A DNA stretch of 64,000 nucleotides from Amphiscolops sp. MND2022. Taxonomy: Eukaryota. Under the pieces are notes generated by a model, which saw only the letters and a list, made by a program, of their open reading frames with translations, did not search any database and was not told where the DNA came from. The stretch's first letter is position 1; the number at the start of each line of letters is the position of its first letter. Below, piece after piece: positions 15,229-64,000 of this stretch. The translations under genes were made by a program, and so were the position numbers. The DNA is taken from assembly GCA_964187785.1 (NCBI GenBank), contig OZ076409.1, positions 38,752,001-38,816,000 of the forward strand, in the 5' to 3' direction.

Positions 15229-15237
15229 TGCATTTCC

Positions 15238-18200: not shown

Positions 18201-20100
18201 ACCAAAAATATTACCTACCGAAGTGAGAAAGAAGCTGCTAGATACTTTACATTTCGGACACGCCGGAGCTACCAAAAGGACAGCAGAGGCCAAAATCATT
18301 CAGTGGCCGAACATTCAAAAAGAAATTGAAGACAAAACAATAAAGTGGGTGGCCTGCATGTCATCGGGTAGAAATTTAAAATATCAAATTACCGAACCAT
18401 GAGTTCCGAAAACTAAAAACATTAACGGAACCGGGACAAGAATTTCAAATAGAGTTTTCCGGAAAATTAAACAACAAAAAACTGAACGGAGAACATCAGA
18501 TACTAATCGCAATGGAGGGATTCAGTAAATGGCCAACCGCCAAAATTTGCAAATCATCGAAAACAAAGGAAGTATTAAACTTTTCAAACAAATTTTTAAT
18601 TTGTACGGATTAGGGGAGAGAAAAAAATTGGACAAAGGGGGGCATTTGTCTCAAAAGAATACAAAGAATTTGGACCTCGAAAAACATCGAAATTGGATAC
18701 AGCACACCGAGAATGCATACCGGTACGGGAGCAGTAGAACGCGCAATACAAACATTGAAGAACCTAATTATTGCAGACTTGGAAGACAACACATGTTTAA
18801 CCGAATGCGTAAGTAGAGCATTGAACGTCATGCAGTTCACAATACATAAGGGACTAGAAACAACACCGTTTGAATTACACCACGGCTGGAAACCACGGAC
18901 CGAAATAACAAACATAATAAAAGACGGAAAATCGTTCCTTTCTAATTGGTCGCGACTACCTGTTTTAGCATACAATCGACCAAAGATACCAATCTATGTG
19001 ACCAGAAATGGTGAAGGAGAACTATCCAACCATGTTATCATGGCCCGAACGAAAATGGAACAGAAGGCAATATCCGAAAAATCGCCGAAGAAGAAAAATT
19101 CGGTTGGTAGATATCCTTTTCAATTCTTTGAAAAAAAAACATAATAGAAAATCATTGGAAGAAAAATTTCAGAAAAACATACAATTAACGGTAAAGGGCA
19201 CGGAGAACACCGTAACCACCGGTACCGGAAAAATAAATCTGAGAAATTTCTTTTCGGATCCGATTGTATTTCAGAATGAAAGAATGACAGCGCCGAAGAT
19301 CGGAGACACCATCACTCCAAAAAACCGACACTGACTCAGAGGAGTCGATGGAAAGTACATCCAATGGAATGAAATCCTGAGAGATGTACTAAACGGAAAG
19401 CTGAAAATTGTACAAAACCGAATCTGACACCGAGAGTGAGGAAGGCGAAAGAGACGAGGAAGAAAGTGATTTCGAGGATCACGATACCTTCGAAAAATAC
19501 GGCCGCAATCGACCAATTACAAAATCCCCCGAGGACGAATTAAACCTACATACGGACGGAGAGATAAATTCTGGTGAGAAACAAACAAATAATAAAATCA
19601 CCGAAAATGAAATAATAAGACGGTCCAACTGTGAAAGCAGATACGGGGGGATTACATATACAAAATTTTCTGGGTGTGAATTAAAAAGTTTTAAATGTCA
19701 CAGGTGTTACTGGCGAAAAATGGAACAACCGAAAAAAAGCACCCAAACCGCTAACGAGGCTTGCAGACTTCATCCGAGAGAAAACCCCAACACCTAGGAC
19801 ATCAAAATTGTAACCGAAGAAGATCCAGAAGGGAGGAATTGTAAAACGGTACACATACCGGATCGATCTTTCGGTGACATTGTCAATCAAACTTAGATCT
19901 TTTCCTAAAGTACCAAAAATAACTTTCATCGAGATACTTATGTTCATATATACTGGTAAACATCATATTTTTGTTTCGTACTGAGATTTTATCATTTGAT
20001 ATAGAAATATAATTAGAGAAAGATTGCGCGACAATCCTTTATGTTCGAAAGAGATTTTAGATAAAATTTTTGTTTTCTTATTCCACCAAGAAATAGAACA
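15238..20100 (+). mobile_element. Decayed Ty3/gypsy, copy 2 (5'-truncated duplicate of copy 1)
   Basis: Same pol motifs and most of the same stops and frameshifts as 4800-9659. Confidence 0.92.
19840..20100 (+). repeat. LTR (261 bp), copy A'
   Basis: Same PPT / TG..CA / PBS context. Confidence 0.9.
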
Positions 20101-20881
20101 TGGCGCAGTCAGCAATCTAAATTACCCAAGAAACTTTTATCGAGACAAAGAAGATGACAGATAAGAGCAAGATTGAAGTACCGAATTTCGAAGCCACATC
20201 AGACGGAAAAAGAATTTTTGCACCAAAAAAAATGGCTCGAAAGATTTCGACAATATCAGAAAAGAAAACACAAAATGGACATCACTGAACTATTACGTTG
20301 AATTGAATTAACACAAACCGGTTGGTCAGGAAAACATGCAGAAATCCAAGAAGACCTCAAATGGGGGATCAGTCTCGTAGCACTATACCAGATGACAAGG
20401 TCGGAATACAAAACAGAACCCGACAAAATAGCGGTGAAAGACCTTATCCGACTATATAAATTCTGAAAACCTCAATAAGTGGAGGACCGATTCACCGAAC
20501 AAAAAACCAAAGTTCATCAAAATGGTGAAAGAATTGACAGTCAAGAACCCATTTGGGGTTGTCATAAGTCACGAGATCAATCAATCCTGCACTGTTGCGG
20601 CAATGGAAGACTCAACATGGTCAATCTGAAGTTTAAGGGCGCGACATCCTCCCAGGCATAGTGTCAATCTGCGTCGAATGGCAAAGCTGATTTTTGTACG
20701 AATTAGGCCAATTGCGTCAGAAAAGCTGTCAAATCCTCTGTGAGATGTTCAACGCAAGTCTTGACATAACTTTCAAACCCAACGGTCCTGGGCCATATCA
20801 GTACAGGCAAATAACAGCAAGTTGATGGTGCTGTGTACCATTTTTTTGGTTCTCTGATCATAATTCAAATTTTCTAATTTT

Positions 20882-21572
20882 CGTTTTGTTTGTTACCATC
20901 TTTAATGTTTCGGAGACAGTATGCTGCGCGAGGATTGAAGATCTTCACGTCAACAAATGCACGACAAAAGCGGGAATCCCAGAGTCCATTGGCCTTGATA
21001 TCGAGGCGGGCTTCATCTTTAGTGCATGTGGTTCGGTAATCGAAAGATTCGCCTTCAACGTCAGAAGGCTGGGTTCGTTTTCGATATCACAACAAACGTC
21101 TCTCTAAATATTGGCGAAAGTGTCACGGTACTCATTTTGGCGCATATGAGCGTATCCTCCGCTGCCGCAGTGGAGTGCGTGTGAGATTGCGAAGTCTTCC
21201 CCGCAGAGGCATTTTAAATGAAGATTTTCAGGCTGAAGGCCCAACTGTCCTGAAACTCGGTTTTTGTCAGATCCAAGACATAGTGTTTCAATAGTCGAGC
21301 TGTGAGCCACTTGAAGACACAGGTTTCAGATGCCAGAGCCAAGGACTATTGTTGATTGGTTTCAAGTGTCGTCTGCGGTGAGACAGTTTTTGTTTTCAAT
21401 ATTCCGTTTCTCGATGATCTCATTGCTTTTTTCTCTTCATCGATGTTCACTGCATCTGCGTTCTCGAGGTGTTGGCTGACTTTTTGTGACCATGTGAGAT
21501 CATTTTTTCTATCGTCAAAAGTTGTTAAACCCTCCGTTTTTCAGTGGAAGTGCCAGCAATTCCCTCATCGGT
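20882..21572 (-). mobile_element. Duplicate CRE-like RLE fragment
   Basis: Near-identical to 10440-11130. Confidence 0.8.
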
Positions 21573-22726
21573 GACGACTGTGGATTTTGTCCGGTCATTT
21601 TGGGTATTAAGGGTTAGGGACAATTTGCCGAAAGACGTTTTGTCGAAAGTCAATTTGCCGAAACCCAATTTGCCGAACGTGAAGGACAATTTGCCGAATT
21701 TTTTGGGCAAATTGTCCCTTTGAATTTGCCGAATTTTGTAGGGACAATTTGCCGAATACCCAGCGTTTTCAAATAACAATGTTCTTGGGTGTCGGATATG
21801 CCCCCATTTCTTCAGTGCCCCGCGGCCCCTTGGGGCCTCTTATGTTCCCATCTTGCTAAGCGAGGTCGAAAAGGAGCAAACACCTAGCGAACGCAATGAT
21901 CGAGGAGCGTGCATACACCGTATATGACCCCATATTAGGTGAGGAGAAGTACCTAATCTATTTCCAACGCTTCGCCGAAGAAGAAAAATTCGGTTGGTAG
22001 ATATCCTTTTCAATTCTTTGAAAAAAACATAATAGAAAATCATTGGAAGAAACATTTCAGAAAAACATACAAACCACGGTAAATGGCACGGAACACACCG
22101 TAATCACCGGTACCGGAAAAATAAATCTGCGAAATTTCTTTTCGGACCCGATTGTATTTCAGAATGAAAGAATGACAGCGCCGAAGATCGGAGACACCAT
22201 CACTCCAAAAAACCAACACTGACTCAGAGGAGTCGATGGAAAGTACATCCAATGGAATGAAATCCTGAGAGATGTACTAAACGGAAAGCTGAAAATTGTA
22301 CAAAACCGAATCTGACTCCGAGAGTGAGGAAGGCGAAAGAGACGAGGAAGAAAGTGATTTCGAGGATCACGATACCTTCGAAAAATACGGCCGCTATCGA
22401 CCAATTACAAAATCCCTCGAGGACGAATTAAATATACATACGGACGGAGAGATAAATTCTGGTGAGAAACAAACAAATGATAAAATCACCGAAAATGAAA
22501 TAATAAGACGGTCCAAATGTGAAAGCAGATACGGGGGGATTACGTATACAAAACTTTCTGGGTGTGAATTAAAAAGTTTTAAATGTCACAGGTGTTACTG
22601 GCGAAAAATGGAACAACCAAAAAAAGCACCCAAACCGCTAACGAGGCTTGCAGACTTCATCCGAGAGAAAACCCCAACACCTAGAACATCAAAACTGTAA
22701 CCGAAGAAGATCCAGAAGGGAGGAAT

Positions 22727-22987
22727 TGTAATACGGTACACATACCGGATCGATCGTTCGGGGACATTGTCAATCAAACTTAGATCTTTTCCAAAAGTAC
22801 AAAACAGAACTTTCATCGAGATACCTATGTTCATATATATTTGTAAACATCATATTTTTGTTTCGTACTGAGATTTTATCATTTGATATAGAAATATAGT
22901 TAGAGAAAGATTGCAAGACAATCCTTTATGTTCGAAAGAAATTTTAGATAAAATTTTTGTTTTCTTATTCAACCAAGAAATAGAACA
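22727..22987 (+). repeat. LTR (261 bp), copy B'
   Basis: Same PPT / TG..CA / PBS context. Confidence 0.9.
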
Positions 22988-23767
22988 TGGCGCAGTCAGC
23001 AATCTAAATTACCCAAGAAACTTTTCTCGAGACAAAAAAGATGACAGATAAGAGCAAGATTGAAGTACCGAAATTCGAAGCCACATCAGACGGAAAAAGA
23101 ATATTTGCACCAAAAAAATGGCTCGAAAGATTTCGGCAATATCCGAAAAGAAAACACAAAATGGACATCACTGAACTATTACGTTGAATTGAATTAACAC
23201 AAACCGGTTGGTCCGGAAAACATGCAGAAATCCAAGAAGACCTCAAATGGGGGATCGGTCTCGTAGCACTATACCAGATGACAAGGGCGGAATACAAAAC
23301 AGAACCCGACAAAGTAGCGGTGAAAGACCTTATCCGACTATATAAATTCTGAAAACCTCAAAAAGTGGTGGACAGATTCACCGAACCAAAAACCAAAGTT
23401 CATCAAAATGGTGAAAGAATTGACAGTCAAGCACCCACTTGGGGTTGTCATAAGTCACGAGATCAATCAATCCTGCACTGTTGCGGCAATGGAAGACTCA
23501 ACATGGTCAATCTGAAGTTTAAGGGCGCGACATCCTCCCAGGCAGAGTGTCAATCTGCGTAGAATGGCAAAGCTGATTTTTGTACGAATTGAGCCAATTG
23601 CGTCAGAAAAGCTGTCAAATCCTCTGTGAGATGTTCAACGCAAGTCTTGACATAACTTTCAAACCCAACGGTCCTGGGCCATATCAGTACAGGCAAATAA
23701 CAGCAAGTTGATGGTGCTGTGTACCATTTTTTCGGTTCTCTGATCATATTTCAAGTTTTCTAATTTT

Positions 23768-24456
23768 CGTTTTGTTTGTTACCATCTTTGATGTTTCGGA
23801 GACAGTATGCTGCGCGAGGATTGAAGATCTTCACGTCAACAAATGCACGACAAAAGCGGGAATCCCAGAGTCCATTGGCCTTGATATCGAGGCGGGCTTC
23901 ATCTTTAGTGCATGTGGTTCGGTAATCGAAAGATTCGCCTTCAACGTCAGAAGGCTGGGTTCGTTTTCGATATCACAACAAACCTCTCTAAACATTGGCG
24001 AAAGTGTCACGGTACTCATTTTGGCGCATATGAGCGTATCCTCCGTTGCCGCAGTGGAGTGCGTGTGAGATTGCGAAGTCTTCCCCACAGAGGCATTTTA
24101 AGTGAAGATTTTCAGGCTGAAGGCCCAACTGTCCTGAAACTCGGTTTTTGTCAGATCCAAGACATAGTGTTTCAATAGTCGAGCTGTGAGCCACTTGAAG
24201 ACACAAGTTTCAGATGCCAGAGCCAAGGACTATTGTGGATTGGTTTCAAGTGTCGTCTGCGGTGAGACAGTTTTTGTTTTCAATATTCCGTTTCTCGATG
24301 ATCTCATTGCTTTTTTCTCTTCATCGATGATCACTGCATCTGCGTTCTCGAGGTGTTGGTTGACTTTTTTTGACCATGTGAGATCATTTTTTCTATCGTC
24401 AAAAGTTGTTCAACCCTCCGTTTTTCAGTGGAAACGCCAGCAATTCCCTCATCGGT
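23768..24456 (-). mobile_element. Duplicate CRE-like RLE fragment
   Basis: Near-identical to 10440-11130. Confidence 0.8.
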
Positions 24457-27313
24457 GACGACGGTGGATTTTGTCCGGTCATGTTGGGTATTAAGGGTTA
24501 GGGACAATTCGCCGAAAGACATTTTGTCGAATGTCAATTTGCCGAAACCCATATTTCCGAACGTGAAGGACAATTTGCCGAATTTTTTTTGGCAAATTGT
24601 CCCTCTGAATTTGCCGAATTTTGTAAGGACAATTTGCCGAATACCCAGCGTTTTCAAATAACAATGTTCTTGGGTGTCGGATATGCCCCCATTTCCCCTA
24701 GTGCCCCGCGGCCCCTTGGGGCCGCTTATGTTCCCATCTTGCTAAGCGAGGTCGAACAGGAGCAAACACCTAGCGGGCACAATGATCGCGGAGCGTGCAT
24801 ACACCGTATATGACCCCATATTATGTGAGGAGAAGTACCTAATCTATTTCCAACGCTTCGCAGGAGCAAAAAGCGGAAACGGGACATTTTGCCAAAAGAA
24901 AATTTGCCGAAACCCAATTTGCCGATCGTGAAAGACAATTTGCGGAAAGTATTCGGCAAATTGTCCCTGAGTCAATTTTCGGTAAATTGTCTTTCGGCAA
25001 ATTGTCCCGTATCCTGGTATTAACTTTTATCGCAAAATCGTCTCGCTACTATCGAAAACATCCGTGAGATTAAGTGTAGTGCGTTGTAAAAACGTTAATT
25101 TGTGCTCTGCCACGTTTATGAAAGCGTGGTATATTTTCCAGCGCAATTTCTCGACTGAGTAGAAAGTTTGTTTGGTGGATCGTAAGTTTGTAGAAAACCA
25201 GTTTGTTCAATCCAGTTTGTAGAAATGTGAGGTCCTTTTTGTAGATCTTTTCTACAAACTGGACCATGTTCTTTTTTTGAATTAGGTCCAGTTTGCAGAA
25301 TACCAGTTTGTAGAAATCATTATTTCAAAAAGAAAAACAATTAGGACTAATGTAGGAATGATGCAAAGTGTAAAACGTGCCTCGGATATGTCCCCATTTC
25401 CTCTAGTGGGCCGCGGCCCCGGTAAATGGTCACTTGGCTTAATGCCATTTGGTCTAAAGTCATTTGGCTTAATACAATTGGTCACTTGGCTTCATTTTTT
25501 TAAGCTAAGTGTCTCTAGTATTGGACACTTGGCTTAAAGTCGTTTGACTTAAAACCACTTAGTTGAAAACACGTGGCAGATTTTGTCGAATTTATCTTTA
25601 TAACGTAGTTAGCGTCAACATGTCATATCAAGTACCCCTCGGGTATGTCCCCATTTCCTCTAGTGCCCTGCGGCCCCGTTGGGCCGCTTACGTTCCCATC
25701 TTGCTAAACGAGGTGGAAGAGGAGCAAAGACCTAGCGCGAACGGAGATCGCGAAGGATGTGTGAAGGTTGTCCAGTTTGTAGAATTTAATGATCCAGTTT
25801 GTAGAAATGAATGATCCAGTTTGTAGAAAAAAACCTACAAACTTTTCCACCTAGGACCAGTTTCTAGAATTCTACAAACTGGTACTCTACAAACGACCTA
25901 ACTCCGACGTGCCCTATGACCATGCTTGAATGTTGCGGGTGGCTGTAAACAGGTCGAATTTTTCTGGTCGAAAGGACTGAGGTCGAACCTTTTGATCGAA
26001 TTACAGGGATCGAATGGAATGCGGTCGAATTTTATCGTATTTGTTGTATGGCTCGGTCGCTTCGCTCCCTTCGCCAAGTAGCAACATTGAGGCATGGCCA
26101 TAATGGCACGTCGCTCCGCTTCGCTTCGCTCCTGCATTTAGGGCACTAGGGGTATGTGAACATATCTGACTACGTTTTAAAAATTTCGATCCGAGTTGTT
26201 TCGATCCCATTCAAAAAATTTGGTATGTCGACCTGAGGACTAACTCTGATTTTCGATCCCGTTCCTTCGACCTATTTCCGCCCACCCGAATGTTGCTACT
26301 TGGCAATGGCAGCGAAGCGACCGAGCCATATAACAAATATACCAACCTCTTCTCCCAAGTTTGTTGAATTTGAGGTCAAGTTTGTAGAATTTCAGGACAA
26401 GTTTGTTGAATCGTATAGTGAGTTTGTAGAAAAAAATTCTAAAAAACTTACCCATCCATAGTAAGTCTGTAGAATCAAATGAACTTGCTTTCCACAAACT
26501 TACTATAATCTGTTTGTTCAGCAGTGCCAAAAATTTGGTTGCATTTTCAATTTTGCATTTCTCACAGGCGGAAGAAGAGCCTGTTACAGAACCCAACACA
26601 CGATGACGTCGAGGTTTTCAAATAAAGTTCTTGCCACTTTTTTGTGACTGTTTTGATGAGGCGATATTTTTGGTGTATCCAAAAGCAGGTCCATGTTGTA
26701 TTAATTTTTTGTAGAGCCTATATATTGCGTCGAGCTTCCCGACAGCATTGCCGTCGTCGGCATATTATTTTTGTGCAATCTCTGTCTTTGAGCAGTCTCA
26801 TTAGTGGTAGAAGAGCGAGTCTGTACATCGACATGGCTGATGGGTTGGTTTGATTATTCCTTCCTGCATCAGATATCATGGATCTTCGTCATCAATCAAG
26901 TGTATTGTGTATCATCATGTTGGGGGGAGAAGACACACCGGTGGTCTGCGACGAACGTAGGGAACCCCATACTAGCCACTATCCCAGTAGACCAGTAACA
27001 AAAATAACAACCAGTAAACTACTCATACCGGCTACTATCGCAGTCGACCGGTAGAAATTTTTCTTAAAGCTACAATGATATAAAGGTTTTTTTTACAAAA
27101 AAAATGTAGTAAGTATATGTTCCTTCCTGTGATAATAGATTTTTGCCGTTTACATTTCCAAGTGTAAGAGTCCTAATGTTAATAATCTTTTGCTGACTTT
27201 CGTTGGGAAAATCTAATCATGCGTTTAATTTTCGATCAATGTACTTCGTTGATCGGAATAAAGTCTTATTTTTTTATGTAGCTGATTGGGGAAGTAGGGC
27301 ACTTTCAGAAGGA

Positions 27314-30300
27314 ATGATCGAAACTGATGACATAACTGTTGATCAAGCTCAGAACTTCATCCGAATGGAGGATTTATTAGCAGCAATGGATGGCGGAACG
27401 CTTGATATGCAGAATCAACTCTGTTACTGTTGCAGTTTCATCATACAGTGCAAGTTAGTAGAATAATCTCGAAGCGATGTCCGATGTTAGAATTTCTCCG
27501 TGTTCAGTTGATTATTATATGTATTTTATATTATTTCTTTCATCCCATATTCGTGGGGAAATTGTCTTCTAATTCACAACAGTAGATTGACAAGTAGTCG
27601 AATACTCATTTAATCTACAGGTCAATGAAAACTAATATGATCAAGTTGAACTCCAGGTCTTGTAAAATTTTTTTCATCGCAATTGTTTACTCATTTCTAG
27701 AGTCTTGACACCGCGAAGTAGCGAATTAGCGGCCGTTCAGCAATTCAAATTAGTGGTAACTAATGTAACCTCCAAAATCAAAATTTCCTCAAAATCTTAT
27801 ACAGTGTTTGAAGTTTAATTTCAAAAATTTTCAACTCCTACTGTAAAACCCACAGTTTAAAAATTCGAGTCTGCTTATCTTGCAAAACTATATCAAGTTA
27901 TTCAATTTTGTCTAACAATTAATAGTTCGGAGACATTTTTCAGCGAAACAGCGATTTTTAAATTAGCGGAAAGATAAGCGATGTCAAAACCCTTTTGTTT
28001 ACTCATCGATTGCTTCGCTGATCTATCAATACTGCTGTTCCAGTGACTGTCTGGGACTCTTTCGATCTCTACCGAAGTTCTTCATTCATAAGGAAGAATC
28101 CTGTTTCACCGACAAAAGTTGCGAAGACGAGTTGAGTTAGTTGTTTCTCATTGGTCAATTAATTACTATCGGATGAACAACAGATGGGGCACAGTGACCA
28201 TTTGATGTTTTTCTTCTCTTCGGATAAACATATAACAGTTTCCAAAAGTAGCTTAACAACAAGCCGGGACCGGCCCAAGTCGGCGCCATATCCAAGGCTC
28301 AAAAATAGCAAAAAGACTTCCAAGTGTCAAGTATTCTCTTTTACAGTACTCGAAAATCGAAAATTTTTTGAAAAAAAATTTCGAAAAAACTACATACTAA
28401 AAAAATGGACCGAGTGGCGCGCTAAAGTCTCACAATGCCGAAAAACTGAAGGGGGGACCCTTTGAGGTTTTTCAACATCCATTCTGTCGCAAAACATGAA
28501 AAAATTGAATAAAACAAAAATTTTTATTTTCGGGAAAAAATCTCACAATGCCGAAAAACTGAAAGGGGGACCCTTTGAGGTTTTTCAACATCCATTCTGT
28601 CGCAAAACATGAAAAAATTGAATAAAATGAAAATTTTTATTTTCGGGAAAAAATCTCACAATGCCGAAAAAACTGAAAGGGGGGACCCTTTGGGATTTTT
28701 CAACATCCATTGTCGCAAAAGATCAAAAAAATGCAGGGGGACCCTTTGGGGGAAAATTTTTTTTCGAAAAAAAGTCTCGCAGTGCCGAAAAAAAATGAAA
28801 GGGGTGACCCTTTGGTCTCGCCCGGTATGGTATGTTACGCGGAAAAACAGGAAAAACTCTTTTGGTTCAGTTCGCTAGGCCAAATAGTGCCATTTGGTGC
28901 AATAATATTTTGTAGAACTTTTAAGAACTATTTTGGTCAGTTCGTGTGGATAGGAAAAAAGAGTCACTATAATAGTCGCGTTTCACTTCATGAAGCGCCG
29001 ACTAAAAATACATGTAAGCGAAAGATATTATTGAATTTAGTTATAGCCTTGAAAACAGTTCGCTGTAGAAAAATAATTCCTTTATTATTAATTAAAGCGA
29101 TTACTTTGCAAGTTGGTCAACTCATTGATCGATATACAAGCAGTCTTCAATATTTTCTTGTAGCGGTATGATGAGTTTTTCAGAGACTTTTTTGGTGAAA
29201 ATTGGCATTCGTTTTACGGTTTTTGCTCACTGAATTGTGAAGATTTAAAATAAAATTATACTATCGCACTTCTCACTACTTCAGAAACTAATACCCTTTT
29301 GTATCTTTTGGACCTTTTGAATCTTTCTACGCACTTCAAGTTTGTTGAAACGCAAGCCCATATTGATATAATTTATTCGAAGCGTCTTAGGTTTTGTTAA
29401 CTAGTCTAACTAGTTTTTGTTTCAATAGCAGCAAATGAAGATTATGCTGCCAGTTTTGAAGCTTCCCAGAAGTCTTCAGTGTTGACCTCTGATCAGTTGG
29501 CACAGAGTGACAACAATGCTGATGTGTTTTTGGAAACAGTGGCGTCATCTGAAGAGCAGACACCAGTGGAAAACAGTAAATCAGACTGCCTAGATCTTGG
29601 ATTTGCTCCCGAAAACATATCTACGTCTGATGGTAAGTTTTCTCTAACCTTCTTATATTTTTTCGCAGCAAAATTCTCAAGTTGACCGTGTGAACTGAAA
29701 CTGTTTGTTAACAAAACCTGCTGTAGTCATGTTGCTGGACATGTCATAGTATGTTAAAGTTGAGTATGCGTTGCTAGCTGCATAGCCTCCTTGCAGCGCC
29801 CAGTAACGGTTACATTTAAAATATCGAATTCCATGATAAGTTGGGAGAATTAAAGAAAAGAACAAAAACTGCTCGTCTAAGAATAAAAATCAAGTCAAGA
29901 ATTGCTCGTTAAAGAGTACCCTGTGGAGGTGTCATTGTGACTGCCTCTCATTTTCTACTGTTGCTGCAATTGCAGAATCAGTCATTTCAGCTTGAGTGTA
30001 TGGCACCCACAAAGGCACAACCGATATTTTCGGAGGTCAACCTTTACTTTCATTCTTATGTAGCCCATTCCATCAGAAAATTGTCTTCGCTCAGCTTGAA
30101 CGCGAGCGGGTCCTGACCTTTGAGGCAGCTCTTCGGGTGGTTACAAAAATTATTGTGTCAGTAACCCTGACAATATTCATCTTCTGTCAAGAAAAGTATT
30201 TATGGGTCGCCGATTGCGTAAGGTTTTCAAAGCTCAACGTGGTTTCATCTGATTTTGCTGAAAACATGTGGAAGTTTAATGAAGAAGTCCACAATCTGTG

Positions 30301-31487
30301 GTATTGATTGCAGAGTAGTTTTTCTATGCTTCTTGTTTAAATTCTCATTAATTGCTAATTCAATTTGTAAAAAGTTTGCGTTTTTTCAAGGTTTTACAAA
30401 TGAAAGTGCACACAAAGAAAGGAGCTCAGAAACGAAGAAAGAGGAGGCCGCGGAAATGATGGAAGAAAGCATGCTGACACGAGAATCAACCAACGACCTT
30501 GATGACACCCCTTTCATCGCAATGCTTGTGGAGTGCGAGTTTTGTTCGGAATTATTTCAGTCCGAGGAAGAAAGGCTGGAGCACATGGCCATCGAATGTC
30601 CTTACGCTGAACCAGTCCAGTATCGTCGCAAGTACGACGACATTGGGGCGGACATTGACGACGGTGAATTATCTCCGAAGCGAAGAAAAGTGGCATACGA
30701 GCAAGATGATGATTTCGAGATACAGCCGAACGTTAAACAAAAGTTCGAAAAGAAGCTAGTTAACCTTTATTGCGAAATTTGCGACCGGCAGTTCAAAAGT
30801 TCAGCGGCCGCGACCAAACATCGCAAAAAAGTTCACAAGGATGGCGAGCTATTCGTCAGTCCGAGCATAAATTCATTCGAGTGCTCCGAGTGTTTCAAAA
30901 ATTACGCAACGAAGAAAAATCTAGAGCGTCACAGAGCTTTTGTTCATGGGTTGACATCTTCTGTAGCTATTCCAGATAAGACCTCCAACAAAAGTAAATC
31001 GACCCAAAGTAGAAAAGAACGGAAAGAAGTTGACTTGAATAACCAAGAGAATACTTCCCCTGTACCAGATGGGGATTCAAGTAGTGTGAAACCAACCAAA
31101 AAGCAAGTATACCATGATTTTTCAACCCCACGCATTTCGGATGAAGAACTTTTGATATATTACGACCATGACACCAAGCAATGCTTAATATGCTGTGGTC
31201 ATTTTGACACTTTAAAAGCAATAAGAAATCATATCAAATATGCTCACGCTGAACACGTGTCCTCTGAAGACATAGTTTTGGAATCCCACGCCAACCGTCT
31301 TCAGAACGAAGTGGCTTCTTTCCCTGAAGAAATGCCTTCCACTCTTCCTGATAGCTACTCTTCCTCCAAATCCAACACCACGGGAGATCGCAATTACGTT
31401 TGTTCTTTGTGTGGAAAACACTTTTACGTCTTACAGGAATACGAAACTCACATTGCTCTGCCACACAAAATAGCAATTAAATCATGA
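27314..31487 (+). CDS. Spliced gene: dispersed C2H2 zinc-finger protein, possibly with a divergent BTB/POZ-like N-terminus
   Basis: Last exon 30391-31487 (acceptor TTTTTTCAAG) has five fingers (CEFC..HMAIEC, CEIC..H..H, CSEC..H..H, CLIC..H..H, CSLC..H..H) and NLS SPKRRKV. Exon 29429-29632 (donor GTAAGT) is phase-matched. Upstream exons 27314-27453, 27621-27656, 27701-27755, 27805-27842 and 28044-28135 join GT-AG in one open frame but are less certain. Confidence 0.78.
28258..29008 (+). mobile_element. Non-autonomous Helentron/DINE-1-like element (HINE) in the ZnF gene intron
   Basis: End 1: AACAA-GCCGG GA CCGGC hairpin followed by subterminal IR AGTCGGCGC. End 2: GCGCCGACT-AAAAA. Central ~115-120-bp tandem repeats (TCTCACAATGCCGAAAAACTGAAAGGGGGACCCTTTG..). 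No TSD. Confidence 0.8.
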
Positions 31488-55095: not shown

Positions 55096-55293
55096 TATGA
55101 GACTGTTTAAAACTCTCATTTTTTGTCTGATATCAGGTTTTCTCAATATATATCCACTAAAAATGTTTTTCAATTCCATCCGAATTTTTGACGTACGTCA
55201 AAAATTCGAATGGAATTGAAAAACATTTTTAGTGGATATATATTGAGAAAACCTGATATCAGACAAAAAATGAGAGTTTTAAACAGTCTCATA
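55096..55293. repeat. 198-bp spacerless palindrome (1 mismatch) inside a decayed HINE-like element (~54925-55635)
   Basis: TATGAGACTGTTTAAAACTCTC..TTTTTGACGT|ACGTCAAAAA..GAGAGTTTTAAACAGTCTCATA. Confidence 0.95.
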
Positions 55294-56280
55294 CTACGTA
55301 CTATCTAAAGTAAAGTATTCGAAATTTAGACGTTATTTCCAAACTAGATTGCTTTTTACTATGGAGGAGCCGGAGGTTCGAAAACAAGCGCTCCCATTCG
55401 TGCCATCACGCTATATCCGAGCTTTGGACGTTATATCCGAACTATAATGCGTTTTACTGAGGAGGCGTATGATCGAAAAAAGCTCGCATTTGTCTCAGCA
55501 CGCTATATCCGAACTTCTGAAGCGTTCTCCAATTTCCGAGCACGAAAGGCACCCTTTGGGTGTTTCGAAACCTTTTTTTGAGTTTGATCTCAACTTCGAT
55601 CTTTAGGTGTAGTGCCGACTTTAGAAGTTCTCGTTTTGATTTTGTGTTAAACTATGGCAAAGGTATTGCAAAGTTTGTTTGCGAGGGCCTTTGTGTGTCC
55701 GTTAACTTGACATAGCGAGCTATTGGCCGATGATTTAGCAGACACGTAACATTTATTACACAGCTTTATACAACTCCCGGTGAGTATAAGTGTGAAAAAT
55801 GTGACTGTATTCGAAAACAGAAGAAGTTTTGAAACCTGGGAAGTCTTATTAATTCAAACCATTCTTCTTGGAAAGCCGTGAAACGGAACAGCTCACTATC
55901 ATTTTGTTTTGTCAGAAAAAACACAAAAAATCCTGTATTGAATAGTGCATACGTGGCGATCAAAAAGTATTTTTTGTTGACTGCGAAGATACGAAAAAAT
56001 AGACGAACCTCGATCCGATTTCTCGTCGAAGTCTTACAAAATGTATCGAGAAAATAAAAACAGGCTTTGAAAAACAAATGCTAATTCCATTCCGGAAAGC
56101 TTCTGTCCAAAAATAGACAACTGGATTGATTGCAAGAAAAACGAAATCCCTTCATTAGATCAACGTCGCAGAGCAAAGTTTTAGCCATGCAATATTTGCA
56201 CAAAATGGAAGAGAGCCACTAACCACTGAGCGCCTAGATGTTTTGCTGTTTTAAAAAAGTCAGTACTGACTAGTGGATAG

Positions 56281-57435
56281 TGTAACGGATCCAAGAAATT
56301 TATGACTGACAGACTTGCAAAGAAATTTTAAAATAACCCGCAAACTGTTCGACTACGACATGAATTTGAGGCTCAAAAATAGCCAGTGCACTATGAAAAC
56401 GCAGAGAAGTTCGAACGAATGAAAGTGAATGTTTACACTATTCTAACCCACGGAATAGCTGGAAAATGTTACAAAACCTGCATGAAAACGTTCAACTTTT
56501 TTGTATTTTTAGGGGCATTTGTGTGCATTTTTCTACTCACAAAAATGCAAAAGTATACATTGAAAGGCGTACTGCATACATAGTTATTTCGTTCGGATCC
56601 TGATGAATGATAAATATTAAACAAAAAAGGTCAAAAAATATTACGGTCCCAAAGAAATTTTCTTTCAACGTTTGTATTTTCTATATAACAGCCTTTTTCT
56701 TATAGTATGAAATTCTCTTCTTTGTATGGGTTCGCTGACTGTTATGATAATTTGGAGTTCAGTAATTTAAAATTACTAAGGCTTTAGGACTACCGTAAGA
56801 GGGATATCTTGAGTGAAAGAGAAAAAGTTATTTTTGCTTTTTGGGGAAGAATTTAAATTAAAATGAAATCAGAGTTAAGAGATGAAACAAAGTTTTAAAT
56901 ACTTTTACAAGTTTACAAACTAACATATTGGGTGGACTATGGGTGGCTGAGTTGGAGTTCTGAATTTTGTTTCTTCTTCAGTTGATTGTTGTTGTCTTCT
57001 GGTTTGTAGCTTCTCCAATTGTTGAAAGATTAGAGATCGATTTTTATTTTTGTTAAACAAGATTAATAAACGGCATGAACACGATAAAACGGGTTCGAAA
57101 GAACAAGATTAAGCTCGCAGAACTCAAAATCTGCAAATCTGCAATTAATTACACTAGGCTCTGGATAAGTCCAGATAATTGAACAAAAACGTAAATAAAT
57201 GGGGATCGGAGTAATTGGACAAGATTTAAATGCGGGGTTTACAAAATACTGTATAAAACACAACACGTTGTAGAACTATCTGTGTAATTATGTGACTGGT
57301 TTTGTACTGATAAGCAAATTTGTATGTAACTTAGAAACATGAATTGTTTTAAGTGCTTTCTTGTTTTGTTTTGTTGCTCCGGCTTTTGTTTACTAGGGGC
57401 CGTCTTTGTTTTCGTGTTACCGCTTGCTTGTCACA
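56281..57435 (-). repeat. Putative 3' LTR (~1.15 kb)
   Basis: Minus strand: PPT AAAGAAGGAAGTGG (57436-57449) then TGTGACA. The candidate end ..CCGTTACA at 56281 gives imperfect TGT(G/A)AC inverted ends. The inner boundary is firm; the outer boundary is tentative because the partner LTR is outside the window. Confidence 0.62.
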
Positions 57436-57468
57436 CCACTTCCTTCTTTGTGAAATTGCGTCTCGCAA

Positions 57469-58450
57469 TTATAGATCCGTGAACTCGTGAAGATTTCGTA
57501 GAAACGGGTCGCAACGGCGACATGTCCGCAGACCAATTTCGTTTCGTTGTATTCCAGGAAGGCCACAACAAGCATAGACTTCCTTTAACGTGGGATCGAG
57601 GAGGATCCGTTTAGCTTCCTTGACAAACGGTATGTATTTGCTGGCCGTGGTTGTGGCAGCCTTATTTTTGTCGGGATGTAGTGTATGTACCAGCACGCGG
57701 TAGTTTTCCTGGATAATCTCGGCATAAGACGATGGGTTGCAACCGAGCAGATTGAACAACAAATTATCAGGGGCATCTTCAGGCTCAGGTTGTAAGGGTA
57801 GTTTTGTAATATGGTGAGCAAGCATCCTTTGTAGAATGGGGACTTGGCGTTGGGTGGCAGCTAAATTCCGGAGCGTGCTGAGTTCTTCAGTGAGCTCTAA
57901 AGTCGGTTGCAATAAGGACTCATTCTCCGCTGTAAGGGCGGACAGGCGTTTTTGGAGTGCTTCGTTAGCTGCCTCTAGCTCTTTGGTAGTCTCCAGTTGC
58001 TCACAAAGGACGTCCATGGTCAACGAAGTTTCGCGACGAGCATCCTCAAATGCTTGATTCAATGTAGTAACATCGTCGAAGCGTTTTGTTAGGAACGCTG
58101 CATACTCGTCAGTGTCGACGCAGCATTGAGTACCGGTGTCAGCGGTATCCGGCCAAACACGGGGAGGGGTTGGCTCACAGAGGCAGTTTGGGGTCGGCTC
58201 GTCAACCATGAGACAAGCATCTTGGCTTGCTGGAGGTAACACGCAAATGGCTGTTGATGGGCGCATGAAGCTGCGCTGGTTAGGAGTAGCGTCCATTCGT
58301 CGTAGGACAACAGTCCCACTGTGGGGATTAACACGTAGGACAGTGTATTCACGTTCGTCCAGAATCTGCACGGTGTCGCCAGGACTGATGGAGGCGATTT
58401 TCCCAGAACAGGTGTATAGATTTGCTCCTGCACGGCGCTTGGCGGGGAAC
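57469..58450 (-). CDS. Accessory ORF: N-terminal beta-rich module + coiled coil + C-terminal DnaJ/J-domain
   Basis: Intact ~327 codons. J-domain LFNLLGCNPSSYAEIIQENYRVLVHTLHPDKNK..FVKEAKRILLDPTLKEVY has the HPD motif and helix I-IV pattern. Heptad region LEAANEALQKRLSALTAENESL. Splice acceptor at 58451. Confidence 0.85.
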
Positions 58451-58645
58451 CTGAAACATAACAAAAGATTAAAAGAGACCGATTAGGGTTTTATGTGACA
58501 ATTTAAAGTGTAAAAGGAGGGGTTTTGACGACTGTAAGATGGAAACTGAGATCTTGAGCTACAGAATGATTAAAGCTTTATTTGCGAGAGACAATTCACG
58601 GTTTTATTTTGTAGACTGGACACATAGGTATGGACAAGAATTAGG

Positions 58646-58838
58646 GCACGGACACGTGCATTGACTAGGCACAACACGGAAACGTGTGGAGAGGGCACGG
58701 AAACGTGCAAAGTGAGGACTAGACGCAAACGTGTATGTTAGATAACACAATTTTTTTGGGCACGGAGACGTGCAGAAAAGGGGCAGAGATAAGTCTGCGT
58801 TAGTGTCCATCCAAATAAAACGGGGCACGGATACGTGC
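58646..58838. repeat. Array of GCACG-GANA-CGTGC mini-palindromes
   Basis: Perfect units at 58646, 58674 (ACACG/CGTGT), 58695, 58760 and 58825; one imperfect unit at ~58721. Confidence 0.9.
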
Positions 58839-58956
58839 ACAAGGTGGTGACTAAGAGTCACGGCTAAAAGTCACCAAATTAGGATAGTTATTTGTATTAA
58901 TACTTTTATATATACATATATAGAGAGGTGGTGTCGAGGCATTTAAAGGGTTGTAG

Positions 58957-61294
58957 CTATGTCGTCGTCTCGGAGTAGTGAGGAGCAGTAACATCTGGAT
59001 AAATTCGTGGAGGAATAATTGTTGGAACTGTATCGGAGATGCAATTAGAGTCACGCGTCATTTGTAAGGTTTCCTTAGCCAGGCCTTGTAGGGCAAGAAA
59101 TTCGTTCTTTGTCAGATAGAGGAACGGCGCGTTATTCTCTATCAGTGAGGGGTTTTCACTGTCGTCCAAGATGTGGATGAATTGGCCTTGGGAACTTGTG
59201 AAGAAACGTTGAGGATGAAGAAACAGACGTTTCCATAGTCTGCGGAAGAGTGTGAAGCTGATAGTAAAAGATAACAAGGAAAGTGTAATGGAAATGCCGG
59301 AAAAGAGTGCGGCTGTACGATAAGGCAAATACGATTGCAGGGCATGTGATGTGGCTGGTGATATTGACGAGTAATGATCTGCGATGGGTTTAGTTAACTC
59401 ATCAATTGCGGTGTTTGTCATTCTATGGACATCAGGAAGCTCCGCAAGCTCCATCTGGACGCTGCCGATAATGGATTCGCGGGCTTCTCCAAGCGAGTAG
59501 GCATGGAAAACATTGCTAGACTGGGGAACATGCTTGAACACTTGTTCAAGTGACGGGGTAAGGGCAACAGTAGCTACAAACGGTTCTGGATGCGTTTCAC
59601 AGAAGTCCATGTCAGGCGACAGTACAAGATCGCCCTGATTGAAAGAGAGCGTACTGGTACAGCTCGGGCGCATTATACAAGCTTGACACATTACAGTGGT
59701 GACTGAGATACCATGTAATCGGCTATCGTTTTTCACTTGCAAGACCGGATCTCTTGAGATTATGTGGTACAAACCATCCGCTAAATAGAATGCCTGTGGG
59801 GCATTTGGTAGGAGTACAGATTGAACGGGACAGTTCCTCAGGCTAGGAATGTCATAGTTGTAGAGTAGGGAACTCAAACAAAGAAGTGTTTCGTCTGTCG
59901 TAGTAGAGAAACCCTTGCGACAGAGTTTGATCCTATTATTCCCTGAGCACTGTTGTAGTGTGGAACCTTCGAGTTCCGCAAAACGGGAGTTGTCCGTAGA
60001 AACTGCCAAAAAGGGCTTTTGAAGCTGGTACAGAGATGCTGTCTTGTTGTCCCCATTCGGTTGATGCAGGGGATCGCGTGATACACATCAAACGTGGAGG
60101 ACTTGGAATTCATAGGAATTCCGAGCACTACTGAGATGCCACGAGGAATCAGTGTGACCTCTAGCACGATGTTAATTTCATAATAGATAGCTTCGTACCC
60201 TGGTTGAATAGCTGGCGATAATTTAGTACCGCGGCGGACTTCATCGTCAGAGAGTTCTTGCACGATGTCCGCAATCTCCTGTGGTAAGAGAAACTGGGGC
60301 GTAATGTGGCCACTCGCGAGAGATGAGATGGTGGAGAACAAGTTAATCTTGTAAGCGTAGAAAGCAGCTTGGTAAGATTTGATGTGAGTGTAGAGAGAAC
60401 CCATGTCTGATATGAAGTTACGAATCTCCTGAAGGAACTTTATATGGACCGTTTCTAATCTTTGGCACTCCTTGTGTGCTACTATCGTACCTTTTATGGT
60501 GCGTACCTCTTTGTCTATTCTGTGTAAATGCTCATTTATTTGGTCCCTTATTTCTTGCAGATTATGTTGTGTTGCTTTGACTTCATTACCGAGAATGAAG
60601 AAATTTTAGGTCATTCCTTGCCTGCACGCGCTGCAGAGTCAAAATGGTCTTCTGTTGGGTATCCAAGACAGCTTCGACATCTCGCGACAACTGGCTGTTA
60701 TCGCTACACATGTTGAATATTGATAACGCTGTACATGCAGCGTCCTTGATCGGATCACCCAAGATTAATCCGGCGCCTGCTCCAATAGCTGCAACAGCGC
60801 CAACAAACCGTTTCTTTCGGGGAGCAGAAACTTCTTCTGTCCTATAAATCTGTGGCAAGAATGACTTCGTTATCTCGGAGAGGCCATTTTGGTCCTTGAC
60901 CGATGCGCTCATCTCCTTTTTTACCAGATTGACTCTTTCTTCCAACTGCTGGACCACTAGACTGTAGGTTTCGTTTATCTTCTCCCAATAACAGCTTGTC
61001 TGGGCGTACATACCGCCGACTGCTATCGTTTGTACTTTGGCTAGAGCCAACAGGCGTTCGACTTCAGTAAGATTCACTTCCGGTATTTTCGGAAACGGGG
61101 AAAACACACGAACTTTGCTCTCACTCTCGGAGGTGACAGCTTGGTACTTGAACAGGAAGGCTGCGCCTTTCTTGAATACAGGGACTTCAGGATTGTCATT
61201 GAGGTGGGTAGAGTAATGCGTAATGGCGACGCAAACTTGAGAAGTGAACAACCGGCAAAGGAGGGTGAACACTTTGTCGTTTGGAAAGTGTCGC
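58957..61294 (-). pseudogene. env: env: class I (F-type) fusion glycoprotein, ~780 aa, with two frameshifts (~60607, ~60065)
   Basis: Furin site RKKR followed by fusion peptide FVGAVAAIGAGAGLILG; heptad repeat; ISSLASGHITPQFLLPQEI motif; Cys-rich block (QCSG..LCRKG..LCLSSL..NC); TM AALFSGISITLSLLSFTISFTLF then RRLWKR. The three ORF-track pieces join after single-base corrections. Confidence 0.9.
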
Positions 61295-61449
61295 CTGAAA
61301 GTAAGAGATATGCGTGAAGGTTTGTATGTGTCCAATTGGTATCGTAGAAATAGATAGAGGATATAGTGTACAAGCTAATGATTGCTAATTCTTCCCGTTT
61401 TATACTTTTTGTTGGTTTTTTGAATATACTAAAGGAGGGAGATGCGAAT

Positions 61450-64000
61450 TCAGGTGCGTTTGCTGTTACGCTTCTGTTTAGAAGTGTTGGGGGAATTGAA
61501 GTCAGTGACATCGTTTGGGAGATTTGCTTTCCATAACGGTTCAGCTCTACGCTGGGCTTGCGTTGATTCGCGAAGTGTGCGTGATCTTGGTTCGGGGAGG
61601 TGGAGAGTACGTGCTGCCTGATGCATAGCATGTCGGTACCAAGGCGAGGTTTCATTAGAGGGAAGATTTGATGAGACGGGGCTGGTCGGGAGGCTTTTCG
61701 TTAACAGGGGTTTGTTGGGGGAGGAATTGAGCCAGCTGGGTGATGTATTCTGGTAGGAAGGTTGGTTGGGAGAAATAGAGGGAAATCGTTGAAGAGGTGA
61801 TTCTGCATGAAGAGGTCCGGATGTTGGGGTGGTTGTTGTGTGAGTGGTGGGAGCGATTGGGGCTGTTGGTGACGCAACAAAAGGAGTAGAAGGTGCAGAT
61901 AAGGGGGTTCCCGGGGTAGCAGATGAAGGTGCGGGCGCGAAAGAAAATGGCCAATTACATTGATCGTGATCAAATGCAGAAGCAGTTTCAGGGTTTTCTT
62001 TACTATGAGGTTTTGGGTTTGCAAACTGACTTGTATCTCGGGTTGGGACATTGGATGTAGGTGGGGGTTCTTTGAATGGTTTCAAGCGATCGTAATGAAC
62101 CACCAATTCCTTTTGAGTTTGTTGGTCTTGAATCCGATAAGTTACGTCGTTAATGTCCTGCAAGATGACATAGGGGCCTTTCCACGGGCTGAAGAACTTC
62201 GATGTTTTGCCAACTGGCACAACTGGATTGTGAAGCAAAACTTTCTGTCCTGCTTCGTAGAGGGGTCCGTGAACTTTGCTGTTATAGATGGCGTTTCGTC
62301 TCTTCTGGTTTTGATTGAGGGCGGACCGAGCCAGTTCGTAAGCCTTTTGGAAGGCTAGTTTGCGCGCGGAGACAAATTCATTCGTATTTGACGCTGGTTG
62401 ATCCTTTGGGTTGGGGTACATGAAATCGATGGGTAATGAAATTTCTTGACCATAGACAAGAAAGTGGGGCGTGTAGCCAGTCGATTCATGTACGGAGGTA
62501 CGATATGCCATCATGACATAAGGCAATTGTGTTGACCAATTGTCCTGCTCGTCGTTCACACACTTTTCAAGCATGCTTTGAAGGGTCCGGTTCATCCGCT
62601 CGATAACAGCGTTGGACTGCGGTCGAAAAGCCGTGGTACGGGTTTTCTCAATCTGGAGAGATTGCATTAACAGTTTGAAGATTTTTGACTCAAAATTACG
62701 ACCTTGGTCACTGTGGATGCTATAAGGAAATCCGAAGCGGCAAATCCAATGTTGTAGCAACGCATTGGCAGTTGTAGAAGCTGTTTGATCTGGAAGTGGA
62801 ATGGCTTCGTACCATTTCGTGAAATGATCTCCAATTAGTAGTATGTGCTGGTTCCCGTTAGACTGCGGCAAAGGACCCAGGAAGTCAATACCAATGTGAT
62901 GGAATGGGTAGCTAGGGGGCCAATCCGAGAGAGAATGCAGGTGTTTCTTTGGAGGGTTGGCCCTTTTTTGGCATTGTTCACATCTACCAATGAATAATTT
63001 ATTATCTTCCTTGAAATTAGGCCAGTAGAAACGTTTTCGTACTTTTTCAGTGGTTTTGAATACACCTAAGTGTCCTCCAGTAGGTGAAGCGTGAACTGAT
63101 GAGAGTATTTCCTGGACCATATCAGGTGGTACTATCTGCTGGAAATAATGATCTCCGGTTTTGATCAGTTCGAAACGTCGGCATAGGATGCCATCTCTAA
63201 TTAACAGGCTCTTTAACTGATTGGCCAGTCGCCAGGTTAGACGGGGAGAACCCTGCAACTCCTTGTTACTCGGTGTTGTACCATCGGTTATCCACTGATG
63301 AACAGTTTTCAGTGCTGGATCTTTCTGCTGGGCGCTTCGCAGAGGGTTTGAATCGTTATCTTGGAGGACTTTAGTCCCTTGAGAAGGCTCACTGATTTTT
63401 AGAGGTGACTTGTCTTCAGGAGCCAGTTGTTTTGTAACTTCTGGTAGAGTGAGAACCGTCACTCGGATTACTGAACCATGAAACAAATCTTGTATCATGT
63501 CCCTTACTTCCTTCCAATCCAATTTGTCGAGACCACATCCAATTCTGGGCAAGCTAATGCGTGTGACATTATTTGTTTCGGCATGGGTTCTCAACGCTAT
63601 GAGAGAGGCTCTAAGGTTCTTGTATGTAGGTTTATGGAAGTAACGTCTTTTCGTTATTAGGTGGTACAGGAATCGCTGAGACTGGTTAATCACCTGGGGC
63701 CAAAGGGGTGCATTGTTAACCATTTCCTTTGTAGGTATCTTCGTCGGGAATTGCAGTTTTAGTTCCTGAGCAATTCCGGAAGACATTTTGAAGTCAGCCG
63801 ATATGCAGTGCGCAATGGAGTCGGCGACCTTCAAAAGGTCTCCTTCCTTCTCGGTGTAGTTAGCTTGGTTTGATCGGTTTGGCCATTCGGACTCGTCTTC
63901 GTAGTAAACTGTTCCTCCCGGCTGATCAACAGGTTCCGGTTGTGTCGAGACTATATTCAATGCTCTGGTTGGCGTGCGGGATAGACCGTCTGCGTGTCCA
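61450..64000 (-). CDS. pol: pol C-terminal part: end of RNase H, TARG1/OARD1-like macrodomain, integrase (HHCC, DDE, GPY/F), Pro/Ser/Thr-rich tail; open at the window edge
   Basis: In-frame HADGLSR at the window edge; EGDLL..SIAHCISADFKMSSGIA..YHLITK..KPTY..ISLPRIGCGLDKLDW; H-ASPTGGH..CEQC; IDFLGP, HSDQGRNFES, AVIERMNRT; WKGPY; no stops over >836 codons. Confidence 0.95.
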   Translation of the reverse strand, partial: GHADGLSRTPTRALNIVSTQPEPVDQPGGTVYYEDESEWPNRSNQANYTEKEGDLLKVADSIAHCISADFKMSSGIAQELKLQFPTKIPTKEMVNNAPLWPQVINQSQRFLYHLITKRRYFHKPTYKNLRASLIALRTHAETNNVTRISLPRIGCGLDKLDWKEVRDMIQDLFHGSVIRVTVLTLPEVTKQLAPEDKSPLKISEPSQGTKVLQDNDSNPLRSAQQKDPALKTVHQWITDGTTPSNKELQGSPRLTWRLANQLKSLLIRDGILCRRFELIKTGDHYFQQIVPPDMVQEILSSVHASPTGGHLGVFKTTEKVRKRFYWPNFKEDNKLFIGRCEQCQKRANPPKKHLHSLSDWPPSYPFHHIGIDFLGPLPQSNGNQHILLIGDHFTKWYEAIPLPDQTASTTANALLQHWICRFGFPYSIHSDQGRNFESKIFKLLMQSLQIEKTRTTAFRPQSNAVIERMNRTLQSMLEKCVNDEQDNWSTQLPYVMMAYRTSVHESTGYTPHFLVYGQEISLPIDFMYPNPKDQPASNTNEFVSARKLAFQKAYELARSALNQNQKRRNAIYNSKVHGPLYEAGQKVLLHNPVVPVGKTSKFFSPWKGPYVILQDINDVTYRIQDQQTQKELVVHYDRLKPFKEPPPTSNVPTRDTSQFANPKPHSKENPETASAFDHDQCNWPFSFAPAPSSATPGTPLSAPSTPFVASPTAPIAPTTHTTTTPTSGPLHAESPLQRFPSISPNQPSYQNTSPSWLNSSPNKPLLTKSLPTSPVSSNLPSNETSPWYRHAMHQAARTLHLPEPRSRTLRESTQAQRRAEPLWKANLPNDVTDFNSPNTSKQKRNSKRT

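Follow-up and report, generated by a model that had tools for sequence, protein, structure and literature searches.

The locus described here raises the question of whether an env-bearing Ty3/gypsy element can have an organization like that of a complex retrovirus, with a J-domain gene of its own, or whether it carries a host fragment acquired once. The element lies on the minus strand of a 64,000-nucleotide stretch of the genome of Amphiscolops sp. MND2022 (assembly GCA_964187785.1, contig OZ076409.1, positions 38,752,001–38,816,000; G000:C1:38752001-38816000 in our numbering, to be referred to as the window). A preliminary description of the window had reported a minus-strand unit in the order RNase H, macrodomain, integrase (IN), env, J-domain open reading frame (J-ORF), polypurine tract (PPT) and long terminal repeat (LTR). 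Translations of the open reading frames (ORFs) and Pfam searches confirm this order, and the element, of the Ty3/gypsy type and 9.9 kb in length, is found to have its 3′ part in the window. The element belongs to a clade with the layout LTR, small membrane ORF (uORF1), small Cys/His ORF (uORF2), gag, pol, F-type env, J-ORF and LTR, which is present in three families. The order within pol in this clade is protease (PR), reverse transcriptase (RT), RNase H, TARG1-type macrodomain and IN. All six ORFs of the layout are under purifying selection. The explanation that we favor is a complex-retrovirus-like gypsy clade whose J protein recruits host Hsp70, most likely to the element's own particle, and we give this explanation as a whole a probability of roughly 0.55.

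The J-ORF and its parts in the window are as follows.

57469–58450, minus strand: J-ORF, 326 open codons after a splice-acceptor-like site ending at 58451
58234–58425, minus strand: N-terminal SH3-like (KOW/Tudor-type) β-barrel, in an AlphaFold2 model with a predicted local distance difference test (pLDDT) score of about 75–86
57856–58071, minus strand: coiled-coil helix, residues 127–198 (AlphaFold2)
57574–57756, minus strand: J-domain (Pfam DnaJ), with the HPD motif at 57670–57678

The open frame that contains the J-ORF covers 57469–58482 on the minus strand (337 amino acids). The assembly (G000, 1.07 Gb, 1929 contigs) was searched with its protein. With 119 of 214 candidates scored, there are at least 137 matches, distributed over 72 loci, and many of them are free of stop codons at 33–38% identity. 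The search with env finds at least 94 matches (84 of 817 candidates scored). At 49 of the 72 J loci, a related env precedes the J match on the same strand by no more than 8 kb, with a chance expectation of 0.02, and 49 of the 63 env loci at 39% identity or higher have a J match downstream. The position after env is shared at 49 loci, clade-wide, in agreement with the preliminary description, which had considered the J-ORF a feature of the lineage. The J-carrying families are only 30–55% identical to one another. Two further families, with one locus each, have the same layout and primer-binding site (PBS), with identities between their two LTRs of 99.4% and 99.7%, respectively. In an IN tree with 49 rows, from 79 candidates after 30 short alignments were dropped (the J-less env lineage is not among the rows), the three families are located within a clade, supported at 99/95, whose members bear the macrodomain. 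Units containing the J-ORF, or its 3′ part, are also amplified in tandem at C12:47298605-47302954, C12:54715757-54735047 and C7:29288265-29292852, with periods of about 1.7, 1.3 and 2 kb.

The J-ORF is almost certainly a selected accessory gene. Among 13 open J-ORFs (78 pairs), the seven unsaturated pairs between subfamilies all have dN/dS values (ω) of 0.11–0.16, and 68 pairs are synonymously saturated with the frame still open. The three near-identical pairs (dS of 0.023 or less) have ω values of 0.54–1.17. Against four older copies, by simple Nei-Gojobori counts in which the related copies are not independent of each other, the in-frame ω is 0.06–0.09 for J, 0.18–0.27 for the macrodomain, 0.07–0.16 for the IN core, 0.10–0.19 for gag, 0.15–0.31 for the env pieces, 0.20–0.39 for uORF1 and 0.10–0.17 for uORF2. 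The other two frames, as off-frame controls, give values of at least 0.5. The synonymous divergence of the J-ORF (57472–58449) from the older copies is 1.7–2.0, about three times that of env (0.26–0.62), which suggests module exchange or a lower nucleotide constraint.

The Pfam DnaJ family matches residues 243–303 of the J protein (E value 1.7e-9, passing the cut-off). The AlphaFold2 model, made with 24 sequences, has a mean pLDDT of 75 and a predicted template modeling score of 0.37. It contains the barrel (residues 9–72), a disordered linker, the coiled-coil helix and the J-domain (approximately 229–305). The J-domain model can be superimposed on that of ERdj5 with a Z score of 10.0 and an rms distance of 2.5 Å over 74 residues. 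It has the J fold with HPD between helices II and III, as in J-domain proteins of the class C type, and HPD is kept in 23 of the 24 aligned rows (28–91% identity). A conserved CG...CxxC tail follows the J-domain. The barrel model matches the KOW domain of Spt5 (Z score 7.9, rms distance 3.2 Å, 59 residues), with Spt5 and NusG KOW domains in the range of 7.1–7.9, and Tudor and chromo-barrel domains at 6.5–7.0. No membrane segment is found in the J protein, the highest 19-residue hydropathy being 0.98 as compared to 2.4–3.1 in uORF1. Foldseek searches against the Protein Data Bank (PDB) and viral models give nothing at an E value of 0.001 or better. The matches to giant-virus DnaJ proteins, none of them at that level, span the J-domain alone, with template modeling scores by query of 0.23 or less. 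A search of the ESM Atlas has a best score of 0.80, to be taken as a lead only. A profile search through 1.84 billion proteins finds relatives over the whole length of the J protein in public assemblies.

A second J-carrying gypsy family is present in the same genome. In a scan of the genome with Pfam DnaJ, J-domains occur in numerous dispersed pairs with a spacing of about 1.1 kb. One such locus (L068, G000:C3:17352501-17359000, 2–5176) has a gypsy-type IN, a broken env, and then two tandem J-domain ORFs of 245 and 251 amino acids. An acceptor-like site precedes each ORF, and each closes with a coiled coil and an HPD-containing J-domain. The env of this locus belongs to the Monjiviricetes/gB class (Monjiviricetes_fusion, E value 1e-13), unlike the F-type env in the window. 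Its IN is 43% identical to that of the window element and is located outside the clade in the IN tree, on a long and unsure branch. The family has many dispersed copies, with 156 matches in the genome, and the N-terminal domain of its J protein is not a confident barrel (pLDDT 55–62). Profile comparison of the two J proteins aligned only the J-domain, or the J-domain with about 40 flanking helical residues, and the fold search barely tested the N-terminus of the second family. Independent capture of the J-domain in the two families is the simpler, if tentative, reading.

The other features of the element in the window are listed here in the direction of transcription.

61450–63999, minus strand: 3′ part of pol, with the end of RNase H, the macrodomain, IN and a Pro/Ser/Thr-rich tail; 849 amino acids, open at the window edge
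63445–63861, minus strand: TARG1/OARD1 (C6orf130)-type macrodomain between RNase H and IN (phmmer against the PDB)
62077–63132, minus strand: IN (H2C2, core and p58_C; Pfam)
58957–61294, minus strand: F-type env behind an acceptor-like site ending at 61295; three frames, two frameshifts
57436–57449, minus strand: PPT, adjoining the 3′ LTR on its upstream side
56684–57435, minus strand: 3′ LTR of about 750 bp with termini TG...TA, from its match to the 5′ LTR
56680–56683, minus strand: 3′ copy of the target-site duplication TAGA; the same four bases are beside the 5′ LTR

The matching 5′ LTR that had been expected beyond 64000 is present at the window-equivalent positions 65805–66550. It differs from the 3′ LTR at 8 of 746 aligned bases (98.9% identity; 98.1% in the blastn match), and the termini are TG...TA rather than TG...CA. 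By this alignment the 3′ LTR ends at 56684, which moves the left edge given earlier (56281) by 403 bases. The left flank proposed there, ..GATAG, is also incorrect because 56281–56683 is flank outside the 3′ LTR; the bases duplicated at the target are TAGA. On C2, a copy 98% identical to this one has a different 4-bp duplication, GATG. The PBS, likewise sought beyond the window, corresponds in sequence to the 3′ end of a tRNA-Leu(CAA) gene of this genome that contains an intron. ARAGORN with introns allowed finds a tRNA in two of four loci, one labeled Met owing to the placement of the intron, and without introns it finds none in six loci. The tRNA-Leu 3′ end is also located within tandem arrays at C8:35.59-35.64 Mb and C11:6.00-6.01 Mb, with more than 1,200 matches in the genome. 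The LTR pair with its target duplication, the PBS and the PPT place the element in Ty3/gypsy (Metaviridae), together with the order of gag and then PR, RT, RNase H and IN in pol, as seen by Pfam in the ORFs of a related family.

The window copy itself is dead, internally deleted and cannot be autonomous. As compared to the C2 copy it lacks about 2.65 kb, with most of uORF1, uORF2, gag and PR, and this deletion together with two env frameshifts rules out autonomy. Of the parts of the element expected beyond 64000, the RT frame is found there, after a frameshift. Gag and PR are deleted in the window copy and retained in its 98%-identical relative. The pol frame past the window reaches 1011 amino acids through RNase H. 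The RNase H reported for the window is represented there by its last motif, and the remainder lies in the same frame beyond 64000.

The macrodomain in Pol is of the TARG1/OARD1 type. While Pfam Macro has an E value of 0.011, below cut-off strength, phmmer against the PDB matches human C6orf130/OARD1 over the whole domain (residues 14–152, E value 5e-32), and this match settles the identity. The Lys and Asp residues that we take to be the TARG1 catalytic pair are kept in 51 of the 52 homologs aligned over both sites, among 77 examined. The other Pfam matches in the pol of the window are to IN H2C2 (3e-19), rve (6e-10) and p58_C (3e-12). In errantiviruses the bridge between RNase H and IN is described as a 'mini' or 'pseudo' RNase H; the bridge here contains the macrodomain. 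As compared to human TARG1, the whole domain is alike, but it sits within Pol, and hydrolase activity is predicted only. The available text on TARG1 describes removal of ADP-ribose from acidic residues and from the end phosphates of nucleic acids (PMC4695847, PMC11088682). The preliminary description had read the macrodomain and the J-domain as host-derived modules captured by this lineage, a host origin that is presumptive. The location of the macrodomain in pol is established, but it is also found in other gypsy pol branches, some carriers being located on branches of the IN tree outside the J-ORF clade. The J-ORF, not the macrodomain, is the distinctive part of the clade. At least 150 macrodomain matches are present in the genome, and a large repeated family of frames of about 834 amino acids, away from env and J loci, contains many of them (for example, C7:41580094-41580522 and C1:97803801-97804229).

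The env gene is located after pol in three minus-strand frames (60586–61374, 59874–60605 and 58957–60087), with the frameshifts near 60590–60605 and near 59875–60090. A furin-like RKKR site is located at 60808–60819, followed by a hydrophobic, fusion-peptide-like stretch, and there is a hydrophobic anchor near 59254–59310. The env pieces in the window match no viral family in Pfam, and there is no sequence match in the PDB. A related copy passes the cut-off for Baculo_F (E value 8e-6), and it is tied to the window env at 57–58% identity through a 95%-identical copy. The F-type assignment made earlier is borne out by these features. With an F-type env after pol, the element is also an errantivirus in the broad sense of PMC13524379, where an env of the F or gB type is required. 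A PPR(V/I)(Y/W)P(D/N) motif ends env in three families (58960–59020 in the window) and recurs in some J-protein linkers (around 58140–58170). It recalls late-domain or ALIX-binding motifs.

Two small ORFs are located before gag in the three families. In the individual loci they are at the following positions.

L023, approximately 3650–4260, minus strand: uORF1 and uORF2
L038, 1372–2090: uORF1 and uORF2
L040, 1443–2178: uORF1 and uORF2

The uORF1 protein, of 82–89 residues, begins with a Pro-rich stretch and contains a single segment of strong hydrophobicity. The uORF2 protein has 118–135 residues, an invariant CYFC and several His residues, may bind zinc, and has matches at 71 places in the genome. 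None of the four uORF1 and uORF2 proteins searched belongs to a Pfam family. A PPPSY-like motif is present in the uORF1 membrane protein of two families.

The sequences at the starts of env and the J-ORF suggest that both genes are expressed by splicing. Near the start of the J-ORF, no in-frame Met is conserved. Instead, a pyrimidine-rich YAG/G site (the slash indicating the junction) is present in the same phase in every family printed, and env starts with a site of the same kind and phase in five of six copies. The candidate donor is located in the LTR.

56919–56926, minus strand: splice-donor-like site AT/GTTAGT in the LTR; the working copy would be that of the 5′ LTR, at window-equivalent 66045

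A site of the form AT/GT(A/T)AGT follows AATAAA at a similar LTR position in seven of nine loci from three families, and it is shared by these families though their LTRs did not align there. One donor ending in AU, in the 5′ LTR, would be spliced alternatively to the env or the J acceptor. Joining AU to the acceptor G would create an AUG for each gene, and for env also a signal-peptide-like leader. Such splicing of both genes is probable from these sites. In the Drosophila springer subclade, the available text of Senti et al. (PMC12992720) describes an env main exon spliced from an AU dinucleotide. These insect endogenous retroviruses are similar in their AU-spliced, F-type env with a furin site and fusion peptide. 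On the other hand, a single donor here, located in the LTR, would be used by two genes, and the available text mentions no J-ORF.

With two additional conserved ORFs before gag and the signs of spliced env and J messages, the complex-retrovirus-like organization is stronger than had been claimed. The Pfam matches are RT_RNaseH, Integrase_H2C2, p58_C and a baculovirus-F env, rather than the retroviral RT and IN and the class I env of Retroviridae. By its sequence the element is an env-bearing Ty3/gypsy element, complex-retrovirus-like in layout only.

In the proposed mechanism, the J protein would be soluble, oligomerize via the coiled coil, hold its client with the barrel, and stimulate host Hsp70 through HPD. 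Action through Hsp70 is highly probable, and ATPase stimulation is predicted. The most likely client would be the element's own ribonucleoprotein particle, during assembly or uncoating. Viral J-domains aim Hsp70 at a chosen complex. The particle is favored by this analogy, by the steady purifying selection, and because J would be co-expressed with env from one donor. The macrodomain, carried along in Pol, would counter ADP-ribosylation by the host through removal of ADP-ribose from proteins or nucleic-acid ends of the element. Several observations weigh against parts of this explanation. No observation points to a client, and the particle has at best about an even chance of being the one. The J-ORF is found at none of the 11 loci of a sister env lineage (25–26% identity; two of these loci were read), so that F-type env does not need the J-ORF. 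An env match within 8 kb is lacking at 23 of the 72 J loci, and a J match at 14 of the 63 close env loci; three J–env pairs that are 18–31 kb apart are among the loci missed by the 8-kb limit. One family's env has its own ATG, and the older copies on C12 and C6 (two of nine loci) have AA/GT or AG/GT at the donor. The Z scores of 7–8 for the barrel are in the range where common folds match. Finally, helix II of the J-domain has few basic residues, in which typical J-domains are richer, so that Hsp70 may be stimulated only weakly or in an altered way.

A decoy, or pseudo-J protein, which would bind to Hsp70, or to a host J-protein partner, with no productive stimulation, would also agree with the degenerate helix II and with the low Pfam scores (31–40 bits). 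However, the HPD motif, which is functional rather than structural, is nearly invariant across families, and a decoy is very improbable. Even harder to credit is a J-ORF without any role, a host fragment acquired once or carried along passively. The ω values of the near-identical pairs are those expected for decay after insertion, but the position is fixed in 49 loci, the frames are open at 30% identity, and ω is 0.06–0.16 wherever it can be measured. A one-off insertion is rejected by this fixed position after env and by the purifying selection.

Two other explanations assign a different target to the protein. The barrel could read a component of host silencing or chromatin and the J-domain bring Hsp70 to dismantle it, making with the macrodomain a two-part anti-host kit. 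The matches of the barrel to Tudor and chromo-barrel domains are consistent with such counter-defense, as are the two J genes in the second family and the threefold synonymous divergence of J relative to env, as though J had been exchanged as a module or could change more freely. In plants, the J protein SILENZIO couples Hsp70 to transposon silencing, according to the available text of PMC8616336, which makes an Hsp70-silencing pathway a plausible target. However, the barrel is under strong purifying selection (dN about 0.07–0.11, dS saturated), unusual for an arms race, and Tyr35 and Phe61 are its only conserved aromatic residues, few for a methyl-reading cage. We regard counter-defense as unlikely, although it and the regulator described next are the serious rivals of the favored explanation. 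The best barrel matches, to the KOW domains of Spt5 and NusG, would instead fit a regulator like Tat, Rev or Bel that binds RNA or the elongation complex and recruits Hsp70 to remodel it, and the region between env and the 3′ LTR is where regulators, as spliced genes, are encoded in complex retroviruses. This position is noted for foamy-type accessory ORFs in the available text of PMC4977317. But the KOW and Tudor rows are tied, about one Z unit apart at 10–24% identity, and the corresponding domain of the second family is not a confident barrel, which leaves a regulator improbable.

Several other features were observed in the window. A near-perfect palindrome of about 200 bases is located by eye at approximately 55100–55300, in the flank past the 3′ LTR. 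Four near-identical direct repeats of 2.9 kb are found in 8700–25000. Gypsy RNase H fragments are duplicated at 6185–6637 and 16624–17076, and an IN-like fragment is at 18614–19144. On the plus strand, 30222–31487 is a 421-residue open frame with several C2H2-like zinc fingers, probably a host-gene exon, and 1962–3214 contains fragments that by eye are like non-LTR reverse transcriptase.

The element can be compared with several known systems. In the available text of Chary and Hayashi (PMC13524379), env of the F and gB types is described in gypsy elements across animals, with gag, pol and env alone annotated. Those ancient errantiviruses share with the element here the gag-pol-env order, the gypsy domain order and the F-type env, and also a tRNA-Leu primer, among those listed, and multi-copy young families. 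The differences are the J-ORF after env, the two ORFs before gag, and the macrodomain in the bridge between RNase H and IN. The terms 'DnaJ', 'J-domain', 'accessory' and 'macro' are absent from the main text of that paper; seven supplementary files are without 'DnaJ', and the instances of 'macro' displayed in them are species names. The annotation there is limited to gag, pol and env, and such ORFs could therefore lie unannotated in its elements. The Juno, Vesta and TelKA elements of bdelloid rotifers, in the available text of PMC5408684, are also gypsy elements with selected, cellular-type extra ORFs before the 3′ LTR, one lineage having an F-type env. In comparison, their ORF3 cargo is a GDSL esterase or DEDDy exonuclease that mostly replaces env, and 'DnaJ' and 'macro' are absent from that text. 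Macro domains are reported in fish endogenous retroviruses in the available text of PMC4977317. These epsilon-like viruses (Basta et al. 2009, cited there) are alike in having a macrodomain in a reverse-transcribing element, but they belong to Retroviridae rather than gypsy, and no J-ORF is mentioned for them in that text.

Viral J-domains are found in the T antigens of polyomaviruses and the Jiv insertions of pestiviruses. These and giant-virus DnaJ are similar to the protein here as virus-encoded J-domains that steer Hsp70, but they are not retroelements. No LTR element with a J-domain gene was found in the open literature; subscription papers, Repbase, GyDB, Dfam and bioRxiv supplements are outside this search.

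Accessory genes are treated as a mark of the complex retroviruses of vertebrates, and the usual description of env-bearing gypsy elements is gag-pol-env. The present clade, which has three further genes under selection, one of recognizable biochemical function, shows parallel evolution of that complexity. We propose tentatively, at slightly less than even odds, that an env-bearing gypsy lineage here reached retrovirus-grade complexity independently, with six genes, one LTR donor making the start codon for two spliced genes, and its own Hsp70 co-chaperone, and that recruitment of Hsp70 is a recurrent, undescribed need of infectious retrotransposons. The recurrence would follow from the presence of J genes after env in two lineages with different env classes. 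It becomes testable which step in the cycle of an infectious retrotransposon depends so heavily on Hsp70 that two lineages in this one genome apparently encode a co-chaperone for it. The presence of a TARG1-type domain in Pol also implicates ADP-ribosylation as a pressure that hosts exert on retrotransposons. The conserved J gene suggests that the elements supply a helper of their own with which to direct the protein-folding machinery of the host.

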